64,000 bases of DNA from an uncultured Acidimicrobiaceae bacterium (GTDB lineage Bacteria; Actinomycetota; Acidimicrobiia; Spongiisociales; UBA5794). The translations under genes and the position numbers were made by a program. The notes under the pieces are model-generated. The model was not told the DNA's origin. It searched no databases and saw only the letters and a program-made list of their open reading frames with translations. The stretch lies in assembly GCA_964584755.1 (NCBI GenBank), contig CAZPAV010000004.1, forward strand, positions 7,386 to 71,385, written 5' to 3'. Positions within the stretch are counted from its first letter, which is position 1. Each line of letters starts with the position of its first letter. Shown in pieces: positions 17,143-24,326 of this stretch.

Positions 17143-17216
17143 GGGGCTGTAGCTCAGTTCGGCAGAGCACTTGCATGGCATGCAAGGGGTCAGGGGTTCA
17201 AATCCCCTCAGCTCCA
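17143..17216 (+). tRNA. tRNA-Ala (anticodon GGC)
   Basis: Hand-folded cloverleaf: acceptor GGGGCTG/CAGCTCC with G3:U70 Ala identity pair, D-arm GCTC..GAGC, anticodon stem CTTGC/GCAAG with loop ATGGCAT (GGC), T-arm AGGGG-TTCAAAT-CCCCT, discriminator A. Confidence 0.85.
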
Positions 17217-17236
17217 CCCCCAAGAATCCCTTGCGC
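17175..17236. repeat. attL core: 3' half of tRNA-Ala plus 20 bp, duplicated at 23822-23883
   Basis: 62-bp direct repeat ATGGCATGCAAGGGGTCAGGGGTTC[A/G]AATCCCCTCAGCTCCACCCCC[A/G]AGAATCCCTTGCGC, 60/62 identical. Confidence 0.65.
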
Positions 17237-17250: not shown

Positions 17251-17279
17251 GCATTGCCGGTCCAGAACGGAACGACCCC

Positions 17280-17312
17280 GAGTCCGTCCAGAGTCCGCGG
17301 AAAGTCCGCGGG
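17280..17312 (+). repeat. Three tandem GAGTCCG(C/T)-type repeats just inside attL (putative arm-type Int/Xis sites)
   Basis: GAGTCCGTCC AGAGTCCGCGG AAAGTCCGCGGG; the 22-bp block CAGAGTCCGCGGAAAGTCCGCG is shared with 23688-23712 near attR. Confidence 0.4.
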
Positions 17313-17368
17313 AGATCGAGCCAAGGCCATCCCGAAGAGACACCAACACGCCTCGCGGTGGTCAGGAT

Positions 17369-18085
17369 TCAATCTCCAGCGACGAGGATCTCAAGTGCCG
17401 CGCGTCCGTCCTCGGCACCGTCGATGTTCCGCCACGCGCGCGCCTCAGGGTCGAGGAGGTCGGCCTGTCTTTTCAGCCACTTCCGCTCGTTGTCGCTGAG
17501 TTCCTCGGCCATTCCGAATGGATCGCCAACGAGCGTCAGGAGAAAGGCGAGGTCCTCGCGCTGAGCGTCGGGAAGGTCGTCGACTTCGATTGCCCGGGCC
17601 TTGACCAGTATGGCGCCGAGGAGGGTGGGGCGCGGGATGCTTCCGACTTGAGTATCCGTGCGGACTGCGACTTGGACGGATCGCCTCAGAGCCTGGCTCC
17701 CGCCGGGCACCTCCACGGAACGGACTCCTGGTGACACCTCCCGCGGCGCTCGGGTCCCGATGCCGTCCGGAAGGAGAACGTCGATCTTGACGTCGCCGCG
17801 GACGAATCGATGACCAACGCCGTCTGCTGAGACTCCTTCGAGCTGGTATCCCAGCGACTTCAGGCCGCGGACGAATGCCTTCGGGTGGTCGGTGATGGCT
17901 CGAACGTTCACGATGACATCGAGGTCCGTGGATCTTCGGGGTGGCGTGCGCTCGTGCTCGAGGCCGTGTAAGAAGACCATCTGAGCTCCGACCAGTGTCC
18001 AGTCGCTCGGAATCACCGCGGCGACTTCGAGGAGGGCGTCCCACAGTTGGGTGGCGAGTTCATCGTCACGAGGGATGGTGATCAA
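17369..18085 (-). CDS. Nucleotidyltransferase-fold protein (minimal Pol-beta-like NTase; possible AbiEii/DUF1814-like toxin)
   Basis: hG[GA] ... DhD pattern (TLVGAQMVFLHG ... STDLDVIV ... KIDVLL). 238 aa. 22 nt downstream of an HTH protein gene on the same strand. Confidence 0.45.
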   Translation of the reverse strand: MITIPRDDELATQLWDALLEVAAVIPSDWTLVGAQMVFLHGLEHERTPPRRSTDLDVIVNVRAITDHPKAFVRGLKSLGYQLEGVSADGVGHRFVRGDVKIDVLLPDGIGTRAPREVSPGVRSVEVPGGSQALRRSVQVAVRTDTQVGSIPRPTLLGAILVKARAIEVDDLPDAQREDLAFLLTLVGDPFGMAEELSDNERKWLKRQADLLDPEARAWRNIDGAEDGRAALEILVAGD

Positions 18086-18107
18086 GGCTTCTCCTGTTGG
18101 GCTCCAC

Positions 18108-18803
18108 CTACGAAGCTCTCAGAGGGGGTTCGAGGCGTTCCAACAGCTCCCTTGCGGCGCGCCGGCTTCGGGGGTCGTCGGATTCGAGGAGGTCGATGGC
18201 GATGCACGCCCGACCCACGCAGTTCTCCCAGGCAAACGGGAGGTCATCACCGACGACGTGAAGCACGAGATTCGGGCGGTCGCTCGGTTCCAGGTGATAC
18301 CTGGATGCCAGAGCGTCGACTCGGGCAGCAGAGACGTACGCTTCGAGTTCCTCGGCGGCCTGGATGTCGCTGCCGGCTTCGAAAGCCGCGCTGACGCCGG
18401 ACTTCACGACTTCTGGCTCCTGTGCGATTCTCTGCAGCGCCGACGGGTGCGCTCGGAAGCTCAGTCTGTGGGCTCTCGCTCTCAGCCTGGGGGCGAGTGC
18501 GAGAAGGCCGTGCGAGCGTAGCTTGCTTCGAAGCCTCGACAGTGCAGAGGGGCTGACCCAATCCACCGGCAGGCCGTCGGAGAGGCACAGAAGCGCCCAC
18601 GCATTCGCGGCGCTGTAGGGGCGACCGTCGACGATGTCGGCGTCCTGTCTGCGGTCGAGGCTCGCTCGGTGAATCAGCCACCGTCCGGCGATCTTGTCGG
18701 CTTCGAGCTGTTGGGCACGCGCCATCGCCCGTACCCGCGAAGGGTGGAGGCCCAATCGCCTTGCGGCTTCGGGGACTGAGACGAGATCGTTCTGGATGGA
18801 CAT
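18108..18803 (-). CDS. HTH DNA-binding protein (excisionase/MerR-like HTH_17 N-terminus + ~170-aa C-terminal domain); candidate antitoxin/regulator of downstream NTase
   Basis: N-terminus LVSVPEAARRLGLHPSRVRAMARAQQLEADKIAGRWLI matches the excisionase-type HTH pattern; promoter with inverted repeats immediately upstream. Confidence 0.5.
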   Translation of the reverse strand: MSIQNDLVSVPEAARRLGLHPSRVRAMARAQQLEADKIAGRWLIHRASLDRRQDADIVDGRPYSAANAWALLCLSDGLPVDWVSPSALSRLRSKLRSHGLLALAPRLRARAHRLSFRAHPSALQRIAQEPEVVKSGVSAAFEAGSDIQAAEELEAYVSAARVDALASRYHLEPSDRPNLVLHVVGDDLPFAWENCVGRACIAIDLLESDDPRSRRAARELLERLEPPLRAS

Positions 18804-18822
18804 GCAGCAAACCGCCGGGAGG

Positions 18823-18860
18823 TTGACACAACTCTATCACTGGCGAGTTAGTTGTGTCAA
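18823..18860. promoter_or_regulatory. Promoter/operator of the HTH gene: inverted repeat TTGACACAACT (18823-18833) / AGTTGTGTCAA (18850-18860) embedding -35-like TTGACA; direct CAACTCTATC repeats; palindrome CACAATTGTG at 18876-18885
   Basis: Read on both strands. On the minus strand TTGACA-N18-TAGAGT lies ~50 nt upstream of ATG 18803. The region is locally AT-rich. Confidence 0.4.
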
Positions 18861-19134
18861 CTCTATCGTTAGCGACACAATTGTGATAACGGCGTGGAGG
18901 CCGTGCATGGTTTCAAGACAGGGCAGGGTGAACCCGTGGACGTCTGCCGGGAGATGGCCGAGTCCGTCGAGCGCCGCGGCGGAATGGTGCGACACACCCT
19001 GATCTGGGGTGCGTTCGGACGCCGGGGTGTACGGGGTGAATTGGAACCACACGGCTCAACTGTCGGCTCACGCAACCCTCTGCACTATCCCTCAAGTATG
19101 GGGGACAATGCAGCATGGCCAGAGGGCGCCATCC

Positions 19135-20250
19135 TCACCTCTCGATCCCGATGACCGCGGACGCAGCCCGAGTCGGCCGGGGACTCGAGAGAGACCGTCT
19201 CCGCGCCGCTTCGAGGGCGTCGGCGGCCTCCCGGTCGCGGCCTTCGAACAGGTGTCCGTAGACGTCGTAGGTCGTCCGGATCGAGGCGTGGCCGAGCCGC
19301 TGGGAGATGACGTAGGGGTCTTCTCCCTCGGCGATGAGGAGGGCCACGTGGGTGTGGCGGAGGTCGTGTGGGCGCATCGGCTCACCCACGGACTCCCGCA
19401 CGGCCGGGTACCAGACCCGCCGGCGGAAGAGGTGCAGGCGAAGCGGCCCGCCTTCCGGAGCGGTGAAGACGAGTCGGTCCCGACCCGGGTAGGCGGCCAG
19501 GTGGGCGGCGAGCTCGTCGGCGAGGAACGCAGGGAAGGTCACCGTTCGGCGGGAGGCTGCCGTCTTGAGCGGCTCCTCGACTCGGAGCTGTCGGCGCAGC
19601 AGGTCGAGCCGGTCGATGCGCAGGGCGGCGAGCTCGCCGGGACGCAGCCCGGTGTAGGCGCCGGTGAGCACGAACGCCCGGTACCGGGGCTGGATGGTCT
19701 CGGCGAGCTGTTCGACCTCTTCGATGGAGAGGAAGCGTTTCTCGGTCTGTTCGATCTTCGGCAGCTCGATTCTGCGACACGGCGATCGTGCCAGGCGCCC
19801 GTCCTCGACTGCCAGCTCGAGGGCGAGCTGCAACAGCGTGTAGGCGCGCCGGATCGTGGAGGGGGCGTAACCGCCGGCGACGAGGTCGGCTACCCAGGCG
19901 CGCACGTCCCCACGTTCGATCGCAAAGAGGGGCAGATCGCCGAAGGTGGGCAGGATGAGGCTGCGAATGACCGAGCCGTCGCTCGCCCGGGTCGAGGCGG
20001 CAAGGTGGACCCGCCCGGCCTGCACGATGTCGTTCCACTCGCCGAAGCTGATCCGGGCGAGCCGGGGGTCGGTCCACTCGCCCCGCAGCTTGTCGGTTTC
20101 GACGGTGGCGAGGAACGCCTCGGCGTCGACCTTGCGGCGGAAGTTGCGAGCCCGCTCCCGTCCGTTCGGTGTCCGGTAGCGAGCCTGCCAGGTGCCGGCC
20201 TTCGTCTTGCGGATGTGTGCCATGAGAGATCCTTTCGCCGTGCCTGGCAT
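19135..20250 (-). CDS. int: Tyrosine-type site-specific integrase (phage integrase family with N-terminal arm-binding domain)
   Basis: C-terminal catalytic residues R...HDLRHT...Y (MRPHDLRHTHVALLIAEG ... RLGHASIRTTYDVYGHL); N-terminal AP2-like arm-binding segment; inside att-bounded island. Confidence 0.9.
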   Translation of the reverse strand: MPGTAKGSLMAHIRKTKAGTWQARYRTPNGRERARNFRRKVDAEAFLATVETDKLRGEWTDPRLARISFGEWNDIVQAGRVHLAASTRASDGSVIRSLILPTFGDLPLFAIERGDVRAWVADLVAGGYAPSTIRRAYTLLQLALELAVEDGRLARSPCRRIELPKIEQTEKRFLSIEEVEQLAETIQPRYRAFVLTGAYTGLRPGELAALRIDRLDLLRRQLRVEEPLKTAASRRTVTFPAFLADELAAHLAAYPGRDRLVFTAPEGGPLRLHLFRRRVWYPAVRESVGEPMRPHDLRHTHVALLIAEGEDPYVISQRLGHASIRTTYDVYGHLFEGRDREAADALEAARRRSLSSPRPTRAASAVIGIER

Positions 20251-20356
20251 CGGCCACCGGGTTCGACGCGGGGACGCCCCGCGTCCCGAACCTATCAGCC
20301 GCCGCCGACACCATTCCGGGGCCTCGATCCGAGCCTGCGGGCCCCCACGTTGCCGT

Positions 20357-20413
20357 CGAACCCTTTCCGTAGAGTTTCAAGAACCCTTTCCGAAACCCTT
20401 TCGAGAACCCTCC
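20357..20413 (+). repeat. Four direct repeats of GAACCCTTTC(C/G) spaced 23/12/11 bp, ~110-160 bp upstream of int
   Basis: CGAACCCTTTCCG / AGAACCCTTTCCG / GAAACCCTTTCGA / GAGAACCCTCC read directly. Confidence 0.45.
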
Positions 20414-20915
20414 AACCGGAGCGGCCGGCGGTGGAAGCCACGAGGAGCAGCCAGGAGTCCTCCGTGAGTCCAGCGTTGCCGGTCATGCCGGGGGAGCGGT
20501 CCCGGGACGCCGTTTCCGAGCCTCAGACAGGGCCAATGCCCGATTCCCGCTACCGACGCACGGGAATCTCGCGAGTTCCTTTCCGCAGAGAGGGCAAGTG
20601 AGACTCGGCTGAAAGGGTTCTCCTTCACGATCAGGCCCATGAGCCAGATCGAGGAGACGAATCCGATGCCAACCGCCGAGTACGCCCAGGTCGCCCCCGC
20701 CGACCGCTCGACGCGTCCCGTCAGCAACGTCTGGCGAAACCCCCTCAGAGCCACACGCACGTGCAACACGTTGCGGGCGGTATACCCGTACACGCCGGAG
20801 GCGCCGTGATGCCACTCAACCGCGGAATGCTCGAGAGGATCGACCGCATGGTGCTGTCGGAGTTGGATCATGGGGATGGCGTTCGGCTGGTGAAGGTACC
20901 GCTGTCCAAGGCGGT

Positions 20916-21320
20916 GTGGTCGACGTGGCGCCGGTACTGGAGGCGATCGGGATGACGATGGGAGGAGCCGTTGCTGGTCTGATCGTCCACGAGCTTCGGA
21001 TCGTGGTTGGTGACCGCACCGACGGAGGCTCCGCGACATTCCCCGGGGCACGCGAAGAGGCACTCGCGACTCGGGGGTCGCAGATCATCGACTGGGAGCG
21101 AGATCTCGCGGCGACCGAGGAGCGGCTCAGCGAATGGACCGAACGGCTGGGCACCTGGGAGCGAGACTTGCAGGCGAGGGAGCGACGTCTGTCGGCAGCT
21201 TTGGGGCAGGCGGTCGTGGCCAGGGCTGCCGGCAGGAGGATCGGCCGCAACGAGCGCTGCCCTTGCGGCTCGGGTCTCAAGCACAAGCAGTGCCACGGAT
21301 CCGTGGAGGGCCGACGGTAG
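20916..21320 (+). CDS. SEC-C motif (metal-binding) coiled-coil protein; N-terminus possibly disrupted (overlapping out-of-frame ORF 20761..20955)
   Basis: C-terminal RNERCPCGSGLKHKQCHG = SEC-C zinc-binding motif; upstream heptad-like ERDLAATEERLSEWTERLGTWERDLQARERRL. Confidence 0.4.
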   Translation: MVDVAPVLEAIGMTMGGAVAGLIVHELRIVVGDRTDGGSATFPGAREEALATRGSQIIDWERDLAATEERLSEWTERLGTWERDLQARERRLSAALGQAVVARAAGRRIGRNERCPCGSGLKHKQCHGSVEGRR

Positions 21321-21441: not shown

Positions 21442-21975
21442 ATGACGCCGGATCAACCGGGTGTCGTGGCGGGGGGCCTCTACCATCGTGGGATGACCAA
21501 AGGGCTTCGGATCCGTCGGGCGGTGCGAGCCGTCGTGCTCGATCCGGCAGATCGTGTGCTGCTCGTGCGCTTCGAGTTCCCGCATGTCGTCTTGTGGGCT
21601 GCTCCCGGTGGCGGGCTGGAACCTGGTGAGCATCCTCATGATGCGCTGCGCCGGGAACTGATCGAGGAGACCGGGCTCGTCGACCCTGAGATCGGCCCGG
21701 TGATCTGGACGCGGACACACGTGTTCCCGTTCCTCGACGGGAGCTACGACGGTCAGACCGAATCGTTCTACCTCGTACGCACCGAACCGCTCGAACCCCG
21801 CCCGGCGATGTCGTGGGAGGACCTCGGCGCCGAGTACGTCACCGACGTTCGCTGGTGGCCCCAGAGCGAGCTCGAGGAGAGCGGTGCGATGTTCGCTCCC
21901 CGACGCATGCCCGAGCTGATCGGTCGTCTGGTCGCCGAGGGGCCGCCGCCGGCACCGATCGACGCCGGGGTGTAG
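21442..21975 (+). CDS. NUDIX hydrolase
   Basis: Nudix box GGGLEPGEHPHDALRRELIEETG (Gx5Ex7REUxEExGU). Confidence 0.8.
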   Translation: MTPDQPGVVAGGLYHRGMTKGLRIRRAVRAVVLDPADRVLLVRFEFPHVVLWAAPGGGLEPGEHPHDALRRELIEETGLVDPEIGPVIWTRTHVFPFLDGSYDGQTESFYLVRTEPLEPRPAMSWEDLGAEYVTDVRWWPQSELEESGAMFAPRRMPELIGRLVAEGPPPAPIDAGV

Positions 21976-22073
21976 GTCCAGGACGCACAGGGACGAGGTG
22001 AGTTCCCGCAGGCAGGGATCGTGATGGGACGCGGCCGGATCCCGCGGTGGAGCTGCGGTGTTGCTCCTGCGGC

Positions 22074-22970
22074 CTATCCGGACCGCCACTGCCAGGTGTC
22101 GGGATCCCATGTTGCATCGGGGACTTGCTCACCGATGAGCGGGTTCCAGAAGGAGCGGAGCGCCTCTCCGGCTTGGGGGAGCGTGACCCATGGGATGTCG
22201 TAGATGGCCACGAACTGGGCCCACCGGTCCGCCCAGCGGTTTGGTGGGTTGGGGATCTGCGGAGGCCACGGGGTGTTTCGGGTCTCGAACGTCGCTTCGC
22301 AGGTTGCGACGACGGCAGAGCTCGGTGAGATGGGGAGGCGTTCGGCGATGACGAGCATGTCGTAGAGGTCTCGGGGCCGGCTGGATCCGTTGCCGTAGGA
22401 GCGTGCGTAGGCGTGGAGCTTCTCGGCGAGTTGTTGTTCGACGGGGATGGCGGGGACGATAGGGGCAGGGAGGCCGGCGAAGTCGAGGACGTCACGGAGG
22501 GGAATCTCGGTGAGGGGTCGCCGGTCGGTGGGCATCAAGTTGACGTCGAGGTTGACACGTTCGAACTCTCTGCCGGCGAGCATCGCGAGAACGGGGAACC
22601 GGAGAGCACCGGCCGCAGTCTCGCCCTGGAGGGGCCGGGCTCGGCCGATCTGGAAGGCGAACCCGTCATCCACGTCGAGCAGCGCCGCCTGATCGAGGGC
22701 GGCTTCGAGTTCGTCGCGGGTGGCTCGCCAGTTGGCGTCGGCGTCGGAGGTCGCTCGGGCCCGGTCGCCGAGACGTGCGAGGAGGGCCAACCCTCCCTTG
22801 AGCGCCCAGGTCCCCGGCGGAGCCGTGTGTTGGAGCCGCGCGAGGAGTCGCTGATGGGCGACTTCCTTGCGAAGCCGGTCGAGGGGACGGCCCGTCTGGC
22901 GGGCACGGGTGAGGAGACGTCGTTCGAGCGCCACACGGAAGGCATGGGGACTGTCATAGGGGCCGATCAT
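22074..22970 (-). CDS. AbiEii-like nucleotidyltransferase toxin (DUF1814 family, type IV TA/abortive infection)
   Basis: N-terminal WALKGGLALLARLG...TSDADANW (hGG + DxD NTase motifs as in the AbiEii LKGGTAL signature); 298 aa; ATGA-coupled to upstream AbiEi-like gene. Confidence 0.65.
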   Translation of the reverse strand: MIGPYDSPHAFRVALERRLLTRARQTGRPLDRLRKEVAHQRLLARLQHTAPPGTWALKGGLALLARLGDRARATSDADANWRATRDELEAALDQAALLDVDDGFAFQIGRARPLQGETAAGALRFPVLAMLAGREFERVNLDVNLMPTDRRPLTEIPLRDVLDFAGLPAPIVPAIPVEQQLAEKLHAYARSYGNGSSRPRDLYDMLVIAERLPISPSSAVVATCEATFETRNTPWPPQIPNPPNRWADRWAQFVAIYDIPWVTLPQAGEALRSFWNPLIGEQVPDATWDPDTWQWRSG

Positions 22971-23542
22971 GCCGAGAGGGATCGGCCGAAGACCTCGGCG
23001 AGGTCGGGCTGCTGCTCGACGACCTGGCGAAGCCGGCCGGCCCGGATGAGGCCACGCTCGATGGCTTCTTCTGCAGCGGCGGCCGCGACCGCCGGATCCG
23101 CGGCGACGTCGAGGATGGTTCGCATCGGTGTGGTGACGGGAATCCCCTCGCGGACCGTGACGTCATCCGCCGGGAGCGTCGCCCGATGGATGAGCACACC
23201 GGGGCGCCTCCCCCGGAAGCGACGCGCAACGGTGATGTGGATGACCGCCGGCATGGCGTCGGCCAGGCCGTAGATCGCCAATGCCGTGTCGTGGGAGGCC
23301 ACCGCACCGTCACCGACCCACAGGATGGTGGCCATCACGTCTTCGAACGGGTGGCTCGGATAGTTGAGCAGGCGGTACACGCCCCGGTCGACACGCTCCA
23401 GGTTGCCCGAGCGGACGTGATGGGACAGGTAGCGACGGTCGACCCCCAGCTCTTCCGCCTGGCTCGTGCTGAAGTAGCCGAGCTGGGCGTCGGCGAGGGA
23501 ATACAGACGGTCGAGCACCCACTTGGCTGGCATGAATGTCAT
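22967..23542 (-). CDS. AbiEi-like antitoxin/transcriptional autoregulator (wHTH N-terminus)
   Basis: YFSTSQAEELGVDRRYLSHHVRSGNLERVDRGVYRL wHTH then SHDTALAIYGL block typical of AbiEi family; stop overlaps AbiEii start (ATGA); palindromic operator at its start. Confidence 0.6.
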   Translation of the reverse strand: MTFMPAKWVLDRLYSLADAQLGYFSTSQAEELGVDRRYLSHHVRSGNLERVDRGVYRLLNYPSHPFEDVMATILWVGDGAVASHDTALAIYGLADAMPAVIHITVARRFRGRRPGVLIHRATLPADDVTVREGIPVTTPMRTILDVAADPAVAAAAAEEAIERGLIRAGRLRQVVEQQPDLAEVFGRSLSA

Positions 23543-23557
23543 AGTAACTATGACATT
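23535..23557. promoter_or_regulatory. 23-bp perfect inverted repeat AATGTCATAGT-a-ACTATGACATT overlapping the abiEi start codon(s): candidate autoregulatory operator
   Basis: Palindrome read directly; AT-rich island in GC-rich context; AbiEi proteins are known to bind inverted repeats in their own promoters. Confidence 0.5.
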
Positions 23558-23670
23558 GGCGCCACGCCAGCGTTTTCCGATCGACTCCGGGTCGCCTGAT
23601 CTTCGAGGCTCACCTGCGTTCCCGCCAGCAGGGACCTCGAACGGCGAGACCCGGCGTCGAACCTCCACTG

Positions 23671-23721
23671 GGGTCCGCGCAGAGTCCGCCGAGAGTCCGC
23701 GGAAAGTCCGCGAGAGGTCCG
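23671..23721 (+). repeat. Five tandem ~10-bp (A/G)GAGTCCGCG repeats just inside attR (putative arm-type sites)
   Basis: GGGTCCGCGC AGAGTCCGCC GAGAGTCCGCGG AAAGTCCGCG AGAGGTCCG; same orientation and sequence family as 17280-17312. Confidence 0.4.
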
Positions 23722-23821
23722 AAAACGACCGGAAATGACCAGAGGCGTTGAGAGGTGAAATGCCAATAGCCACAAGGGTTTTCGGCCGTTTCGCCAGGTG
23801 GCGAAACGTGCCCGTTCTTCG

Positions 23822-23883
<62 letters not shown>

Positions 23884-23936
23884 CGGGGCTGTCGCATGGA
23901 TGGTCGCCGCAGCGGGGTTGCCGGCGTGGTGTCGGT

Positions 23937-24326
23937 TCAGGTGGTGGCGAGCCGGTGCCGGTGGATCTCGAGCAGGTCGTGGACGGTGCACACGAGTCGT
24001 CCTTCGCTGGTGGTGGCAGCGAGTCCTCGCCGTGAGAACCGTCGGAACCTGAGGTTGGCCTTGATGTTCCCGAAGAGCGTCTCGACGGTGGACCTCGGCT
24101 TGGCGTAGGCGGCGGCTCCGCCGTCGGTGGCGAGGCGCTCGACGAAGGCGTGACGGACCTGGGCTGGATCGGGCAAGCCGCGGCGGTGATGCTCGAGCAG
24201 TGTGCCCACGGTGGTGGTCGAGACGCCCAGGTGGGTCGTCGCGGTCTGTGCGGTGATGTCGCCTCGGTCGGGGCATTCGATGACGTCCCGGCGCCGGCCG
24301 AGACGGGGACCGCTCCTGTCGGTCAC
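23937..24326 (-). pseudogene. IS5/IS4-like DDE transposase fragment (C-terminal part only)
   Basis: C-terminal block VETLFGNIKANLRFRRFSRRGL...LVCTVHDLLEI resembles the DDE_Tnp_1 C-terminus; no N-terminal catalytic region; located just outside attR. Confidence 0.55.

Follow-up and report, generated by a model that had tools for sequence, protein, structure and literature searches.

Two described groups stand closest to the locus reported here: the prototype AbiE toxin-antitoxin (TA) system of Streptococcus agalactiae, AbiEi-AbiEii (SAG1284/1285), and the MenA-MenT (MenAT) pairs of Mycobacterium tuberculosis. MenT toxins attach nucleotides to the tRNA 3'-CCA end. AbiEii is likewise a tRNA nucleotidyltransferase, and use of the nucleoside triphosphate (NTP) varies, with MenT1 and MenT3 preferring CTP, MenT4 GTP and S. 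agalactiae AbiEii UTP (bioRxiv 10.64898/2026.01.19.700257). MenA1 and MenA3 induce auto-phosphorylation of their toxins at T39 and S78, respectively, and residue roles have been assigned in MenT3 (PMC11375011); S. agalactiae AbiEi binds AbiEii and triggers its auto-phosphorylation at T65, which makes the system type VII, and triple mutation of the AbiEi D85/E86/I87 loop removes antitoxicity (bioRxiv 10.64898/2026.01.19.700257). AbiEi and Rv2827c use inverted repeats to repress their own promoters, AbiEi as a monomeric autorepressor on two 23-bp inverted repeats 3 bp apart and Rv2827c by binding four 23-bp repeats (PMC7319586). We analyzed a 64,000-nucleotide stretch of DNA (the window) from contig CAZPAV010000004.1 of an uncultured Acidimicrobiaceae bacterium, in which two adjacent genes, abiEi and abiEii, encode an AbiE pair, an AbiEi antitoxin and an AbiEii/DUF1814 nucleotidyltransferase. 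The locus is an ordinary, intact, new member of the abundant and well-known AbiE/MenAT family, and it is very probably a functional two-gene TA operon, part of the cargo of a 6.65-kb island that is inserted at tRNA-Ala.

The AbiEi-AbiEii pair

Profiles and folds identify both proteins. The toxin scores 96.3 bits (cut-off 22.5; E value 3.6e-27) against Pfam AbiEii (PF08843) over profile positions 1-219 of 238 and matches the PADLOC AbiEii model at 1.2e-77 over residues 4-297; a phmmer search of Protein Data Bank (PDB) sequences returned MenT3/Rv1045 (E 3e-10). The antitoxin matches Pfam AbiEi_4 over residues 11-58 (E 5.4e-14, 52.5 bits, cut-off 25), the C-terminal domain AbiEi_1 over residues 76-154 (E 1.6e-7, 32 bits, cut-off 22.2) and the PADLOC AbiEi model over nearly its full length (1.6e-66). 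A search of the NCBIfam profiles gave no match for either protein; no NCBIfam hidden Markov model covers the AbiE family. AlphaFold2 (AF2) models of both proteins, built on 30-sequence alignments, reached a predicted local distance difference test score (pLDDT) of 92.9 for the toxin and 93 for the antitoxin. In Foldseek searches the toxin model was closest to MenT3/Rv1045 (E 1.6e-17, template modeling (TM) score 0.81-0.83, root mean square deviation 3.0 Å over ~288 residues), with MenT4 second (E 3e-9, TM 0.54). The best PDB fold for the antitoxin was S. agalactiae AbiEi (6Y8Q; E 1.8e-8, TM 0.68), followed by Rv2827c (1ZEL); by sequence the PDB search was only marginal (E 0.13), and it was the fold search that settled the match. 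Profile and fold agree on a winged helix-turn-helix (HTH) at the N terminus and a C-terminal antitoxicity domain.

A sequence-only reading of this DNA had already proposed an AbiEi/AbiEii module, on the strength of a winged HTH (YFSTSQAEELGVDRRYLSHHVRSGNLERVDRGVYRL) and an SHDTALAIYGL block in the antitoxin open reading frame (ORF), hGG and DxD motifs (WALKGGLALLARLG and SDADANW) in the toxin ORF, and an ATGA stop/start overlap between the two. Each of these is present in the sequence, the antitoxin elements falling in a protein that matches both AbiEi domain profiles and the toxin motifs aligning with the catalytic residues of MenT3; with all three Pfam matches above their cut-offs, and the PADLOC models and predicted folds in agreement, the assignment is borne out. 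Two of its labels are not. Its "type IV" follows a classification of 2014, whereas a 2026 preprint makes AbiE type VII on account of AbiEi-induced AbiEii auto-phosphorylation, and "GTP-specific" is not a family trait, as the different NTPs used by MenT1, MenT3, MenT4 and S. agalactiae AbiEii show.

The catalytic residues of the toxin are conserved throughout. Its nucleotidyltransferase motifs are K58-G59-G60, D76-A-D78 and a third acidic residue, D142, and the C-terminal motif of DUF1814 is present as K184-L-H186 followed by R198-x-x-D201-x-x-D204. All of these are invariant in 30 toxin homologues (49-81% identity to the query) except G60, which is at least 90% conserved. The phmmer alignment to MenT3 agrees with the published numbering at K61, R76, S78, K79, P120 and M122, and also at K189, H191, R205, H207 and R238. 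In this alignment toxin residues K58, G59-G60, R72, D76, D78 and D142 correspond to MenT3 K61, G62-G63, R76, D80, D82 and E146, and toxin residues K184, H186, R198, D204 and R231 correspond to MenT3 K189, H191, R205, D211 and R238; R72 and R231 are likewise invariant in the homologues. T74, a Ser/Thr position two residues before the first catalytic aspartate (D76), is equally invariant and aligns with S78, the phospho-acceptor of MenT3. In the antitoxin, the loop D95-A96-M97-P98 aligns with D85-E86-I87 in the α5-β4 loop of S. agalactiae AbiEi, and in 30 homologues P98 is invariant and A96 and M97 nearly so. T74 and the antitoxin loop thus have the sequence features expected of a type VII system.

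abiEi lies directly upstream of the toxin gene in the same orientation, an arrangement kept in relatives, and the same 4-nt overlap of the two genes occurs in four of them (L045, L046, L047 and L049). The comparison set, with loci designated by L numbers, comprised 44 genome loci encoding antitoxin relatives and further metagenomic places. The closest antitoxin relatives are from metagenome-assembled genomes (MAGs) of Acidimicrobiia (84-91% identity), followed by MAGs of Nitriliruptoria and of Egibacter type at ~50%. The pair is retained in every locus long enough to show it, in differing contexts. Public databases hold hundreds of homologues, 100%-identical proteins on several contigs among them, and several are already labeled AbiEi or AbiEii by NCBI or JGI. 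Among the contexts, L054 has the pair beside another integrase and a tRNA-Leu, L046 (1-1768) has it directly downstream of a gene for a TIR/NB-ARC/TPR protein in a setting that resembles a defense island, and in L050 a type I restriction HsdR gene adjoins it.

A conserved palindrome on a predicted promoter

The start of the antitoxin gene carries a perfect 23-bp palindrome, the candidate AbiEi operator, which covers the in-frame ATG at 23542-23540 and stops 1 nt short of a second in-frame ATG at 23533-23531. With arm length set at 11 nt or more and spacer length at 6 nt or less, the whole window has five distinct perfect palindromes against ~0.8 expected from a first-order Markov model of it. 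The other four are G+C-rich and hairpin-like. The candidate operator is 74% A+T in a window of 68% G+C, the sole A+T-rich palindrome of such size there, and its core, ATGTCA-N9-TGACAT, occurs once in the window. Its half-sites are 11 bp long with centers 12 bp apart. Imperfect symmetry extends to 23528-23564, and the palindromes of L005, L007 and L046 have arms of 14-17 nt, so the real footprint may be ~37 bp. A search for further half-sites gave three matches against 0.06 expected, one of them a 9/10 copy, CTATGACAGT, at 22950-22959(-) in codons 4-7 of the toxin gene, where it includes a rare TAT codon. This third half-site was set aside as absent from relatives: the closest one, L001, reads CTACGACAGT at this place, and the others lack CTATGACAGT as well. 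It is probably coincidental, a consequence of conserved coding for P-Y-D-S.

The palindrome is conserved in relatives in its symmetry and its register. We aligned the start regions of 15 loci (the window and 14 relatives) on the ATG and without gaps. L045 has the same palindrome as the window, AATGTCATAGT-t-ACTATGACATT, and L001 and L007 share its core with arms of up to 12 or 17 nt. L046 reads GGTTGTCATAG-cta-CTATGACAACC, in which a change of AA to GT in one arm is matched by TT to AC in the other; L003-L005 and L054 read (G/A)ATGTCAAA-gatag-TTTGACATC; and in L006, GATGTAAAA-gatag-TTTTACATC, C to A is matched by G to T. In L048, AATGTTACA-cgtaa-TGTAACATT, CATA to TACA is matched by TATG to TGTA. 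L051 has AATGTCAAC-gttat-GATGACATT, and L049 has CATGAAACTATAA-gatat-TTTTAGTTTCATG, an unrelated sequence in an unchanged register. Arm cells are complementary in 80% of cases, compared with 24-48% when the partner column is slid, and changes on both sides were seen at nine of the 14 arm positions; none of 500 shuffles reached the observed values, a count that is not a probability because the aligned sequences are related. Such paired changes occur in several separate lineages. So constant a register, with both arms changing, goes far beyond what chance would give, and the palindrome accompanies abiEi into contexts outside islands, for example in L046-L049. The sequence-only reading had found the 23-bp inverted repeat, which is indeed perfect, and had likened it to the known autoregulation of abiE operons. 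The covariation in register supports the operator idea; the agreement at 23 bp is coincidental, because 23 bp is the size of each repeat in the known systems and of the whole palindrome here.

The center of the palindrome is predicted to be an extended -10 element. In the 15-locus alignment T21, A22 and T26 (TAnnnT) are invariant, and G19, two bases before T21, is nearly so. GnTAnnnT is the actinobacterial extended -10 pattern. The hexamer is separated from the ATG, which is GTG in L002 and L047, by exactly 7 nt, and a consensus TTGACA precedes TAnnnT by 16 nt in L003, L004, L006 and L054. With this spacing, the abiEi-abiEii mRNA is probably leaderless, starting at or beside ATG 23533. Three relatives (L006, L048 and L049) lack a start codon where the first ATG stands and can use the second only; in L001 and L007 the second position is AGG, which leaves only the first ATG, inside the palindrome. 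Database gene calls for the antitoxin are divided between 191 and 188 aa. For the window we slightly prefer 23533 to 23542 as the start codon, judging from the alignment.

From these features and from homology we propose the following mode of action. AbiEii nucleotidyltransferase activity would block aminoacylation and halt translation. The AbiEi C-terminal domain would bind the toxin through its D95-A96-M97-P98 loop and push T74, just before D76-x-D78, towards the γ-phosphate of the NTP, whereupon the toxin would phosphorylate itself and become inactive, as in type VII systems. The AbiEi winged HTH would bind the palindrome with one monomer per 11-bp half-site. With the operator lying across the -10 element, AbiEi bound there would shut out RNA polymerase and so repress the probably leaderless abiEi-abiEii transcript, and the ATGA overlap would couple toxin translation to antitoxin translation. 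The module may serve island stabilization, abortive-infection defense or both; AbiE is described as stabilizing an integrative and conjugative element in Streptococcus suis (PMC11062541).

Several points weigh against parts of this proposal. There is no recognizable -35 element in the window at abiEi, and a scan of 21900-23900 for E. coli-type (σ70) promoters and terminators found nothing, so the promoter call rests on the actinobacterial TAnnnT pattern together with the comparative data. The AGG of L001 and L007 clashes with a universal leaderless start. The geometry of the operator, 23 bp in total and centered on the -10 element, is unlike the known sites of 23 bp per monomer. Rv1044 (MenA3), the antitoxin of MenT3, lacks upstream inverted repeats and showed no binding to its own promoter (PMC7319586), and autoregulation is therefore not universal in this branch. 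The NTP preference of MenT3 cannot be transferred to the toxin, because its cytosine-contacting residues P120 and M122 are both replaced, M122 by an invariant glutamate (E117). A defense role is not assured, since S. agalactiae AbiE gave zero protection against 32 coliphages in E. coli. Finally, the frameshift in the island's SEC-C gene described below hints at some decay of the island.

A palindrome over a start codon could also act as RNA. If transcription began further upstream, a hairpin of 10-11 bp would bury the first AUG, abut the second and throttle translation of the antitoxin. The RNA of 23500-23600(-) does fold so that a longer stem encloses the palindrome hairpin (-38.5 kcal/mol, z = -2.7), symmetric covariation is equally expected of an RNA stem, and L001 and L007 are confined to the ATG within the palindrome. 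However, the arm sequence itself (ATGTCA...TGACAT) is conserved across proteins that are only ~50% identical, which an RNA stem would not need, and the invariant central GnTAnnnT and the fixed 7 nt to the ATG are promoter features, by which most of the palindrome would not be transcribed at all. The characterized AbiEi proteins, moreover, are DNA-binding autorepressors that act on inverted repeats. We regard the RNA hairpin as distinctly unlikely and a DNA operator for AbiEi as the better account of the palindrome.

The island at tRNA-Ala

The claim that the module lies on an integrative element holds as well: a 67-nt direct repeat of the 3' half of tRNA-Ala flanks a 6.65-kb element that encodes a tyrosine integrase (Table 1), and G+C content falls from ~75% outside to ~66% inside. 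The island has genes for a 238-aa protein, an HTH_17 protein, the tyrosine integrase, a 56-aa ORF, a SEC-C-motif protein, a NUDIX hydrolase, AbiEii and AbiEi.

Table 1. Positions of the AbiE genes, their predicted control elements and the island borders in the window
Feature	Position	Strand	Remarks
abiEi antitoxin/repressor gene	22967-23542	-	191 aa from ATG 23542 or 188 aa from ATG 23533
abiEii/MenT-like DUF1814 nucleotidyltransferase toxin gene	22074-22970	-	298 aa
ATGA overlap of antitoxin stop and toxin start	22967-22970	-	TGA 22969-22967, ATG 22970-22968
Candidate AbiEi operator	23535-23557	.	perfect 11-1-11 palindrome AATGTCATAGT-N-ACTATGACATT; from sequence and comparison
Predicted extended -10 element, GtTACTAT (GnTAnnnT)	23541-23548	-	palindrome center; 7 nt upstream of ATG 23533
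Second in-frame ATG, likely leaderless start	23531-23533	-	ATG or GTG here in 13 of 15 aligned loci
tRNA-Ala(GGC)	17143-17218	+	ARAGORN; with attL spans 17143-17236
attL	17170-17236	+	67-nt direct repeat
attR (tRNA-Ala 3' half plus 18 nt)	23817-23883	+	94% identical to 17170-17236; island end beside abiEi
Island tyrosine integrase gene	19135-20250	-	Pfam Phage_integrase, 5.6e-19

The same cargo is found in L052 at the same tRNA-Ala/rsfS site, where the segment corresponding to 17319-20468, integrase included, is missing. In L007 (JALSJV010000323.1, 1-3850), from the same MAG as the intact module of L001, the island at tRNA-Ala has decayed; its abiEi is cut to ~90 codons and most of abiEii, the NUDIX gene and the integrase gene is deleted. 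Its operator palindrome is retained and extended to 17-nt arms.

These loci bear on whether the module might be a remnant, silent or in decay, on an island that is itself degenerating. In the window the SEC-C gene next to the module is frameshifted relative to L045 and L052, and a transposase remnant lies just outside attR; L007 shows the same island family decaying in place, and L052 is without the integrase segment. Against this, both ORFs are full length with every invariant catalytic residue present, the operator palindrome is perfect, and several contigs encode identical proteins. An intact pair is as a rule a functional one, because with an active toxin the cell would not survive if the antitoxin were lost first. 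There is accordingly very little chance that the module is a remnant, and we retain the view that it is a functional operon. That the palindrome is instead a recombination site of the island, for integrase or excisionase, is scarcely credible: it lies ~260 bp from the attR core with tandem 11-bp repeats resembling arm-type sites (23671-23730) in between, but it was rejected in this role since the palindrome follows abiEi into non-island contexts, keeping its register in L045-L049 and L051 with no att site or tRNA nearby, and has no second copy near attL.

The SEC-C zinc-motif gene (~150 aa; 20809-21320(+)) is convergent with abiEii, the NUDIX gene lying between them in the window. A SEC-C gene adjoins abiEii convergently in L045 (3520-3972), in L052 (2106-2774) and in one further metagenomic place. 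Compared with the intact homologues of L045 and L052, the window copy has a frameshift near 20940-20952, which makes it a pseudogene or reflects a sequencing error. The NUDIX hydrolase gene (21442-21975(+)) gave a weak PADLOC match to PDC-S07 (4e-7); it has the same position in L052, and fragments of it are left in L001 and L007. When metagenomes were scanned with the SEC-C protein of L045 to gauge its linkage to AbiE, one true relative turned up, on a 1-kb contig that bears no AbiE. We consider it unlikely that SEC-C, and in the tRNA-Ala island family NUDIX as well, are accessory parts of a larger conserved AbiE cassette of this actinobacterial clade, a multi-gene variant, or, as a separate matter, that the palindrome represents a minimal AbiEi operator architecture not described before. 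In such a variant the SEC-C and NUDIX products could act as a sensor or trigger, or as a nucleotide-hydrolyzing modulator of the toxin.

A second co-oriented pair is formed by the HTH_17 gene (18108-18803(-), 231 aa) and, 22 nt downstream, the gene for the 238-aa protein (17369-18085(-)), which has no match in Pfam, PADLOC or the PDB. This protein carries STDLDVIV, reminiscent of a nucleotidyltransferase DxD motif, and the pair could be TA-like. Close within both ends of the island, in the same orientation, are three to four tandem 11-bp repeats, GAGTCCGCNNA (17269-17317 and 23671-23730), which may be arm-type sites for integrase or excisionase; a different repeat of 11-bp period (GAAACCCTTTC-like) occupies 20363-20410 upstream of the integrase gene. 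A G+C-rich perfect palindrome, CGTTTCGCCAGGTGGCGAAACG (23787-23808), lies just inside the attR core and could be a terminator or a recombination site. The transposase remnant, the C-terminal part of a DDE transposase (23937-24326(-); DDE_Tnp_1_6, 1.7e-8), lies immediately outside attR.

Comparison with known AbiE and MenAT systems

MenA3-MenT3 of M. tuberculosis (Rv1044-Rv1045; TakA-TglT) is the best match of the toxin by both sequence and fold. Both systems are from Actinomycetota, and MenA3 and the window antitoxin are both COG5340/AbiEi-type proteins of ~190-207 aa. The toxins are only ~24% identical, and the CTP-contacting P120 and M122 of MenT3 are not kept. MenAT3 lies in the chromosome rather than on a tRNA island, and in place of the strongly conserved palindrome on a predicted promoter seen here Rv1044 has none. 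MenA4-MenT4 (Rv2827c-Rv2826c), which gave the second-ranked folds for both proteins, has an AbiEi-family autorepressor with repeats that overlap its promoter. Rv2827c differs in its length (295 aa), its larger C-terminal domain and its negative co-operativity on the four repeats, and MenT4 is GTP-specific, unphosphorylated and without antitoxin binding, as well as a weaker match to the toxin.

With S. agalactiae AbiE, whose antitoxin is the closest in fold, the locus has in common a winged HTH with an antitoxicity domain, the D-x-hydrophobic-P loop, a bicistronic operon and an integrative element as its site, at an antitoxin identity of ~18%. Negative autoregulation through inverted repeats in the promoter is proposed here by analogy with S. 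agalactiae AbiEi. The S. agalactiae operator spans 49 bp, its two repeats are bound by one monomer each, and binding is co-operative and bends the DNA.

The significance of the locus is mainly one of annotation: an Acidimicrobiia-like genome carries an intact AbiE/MenAT module on a small island at tRNA-Ala. The proposed type VII auto-phosphorylation would, through T74 and the antitoxin loop, extend to another actinobacterial lineage. The compact operator with the -10 element at its center, along with a probably leaderless start, would be a modest variation in regulatory architecture, and its value, itself modest, lies in the comparative picture of an AbiEi clade in which a single compact palindrome appears locked onto an extended -10 element. 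Such an operator would offer a small, clean target for work on DNA recognition by AbiEi monomers. Set against two 23-bp repeats in S. agalactiae, four in Rv2827c and no operator in MenAT3, it could help to explain why autoregulation differs among MenAT and AbiE systems.

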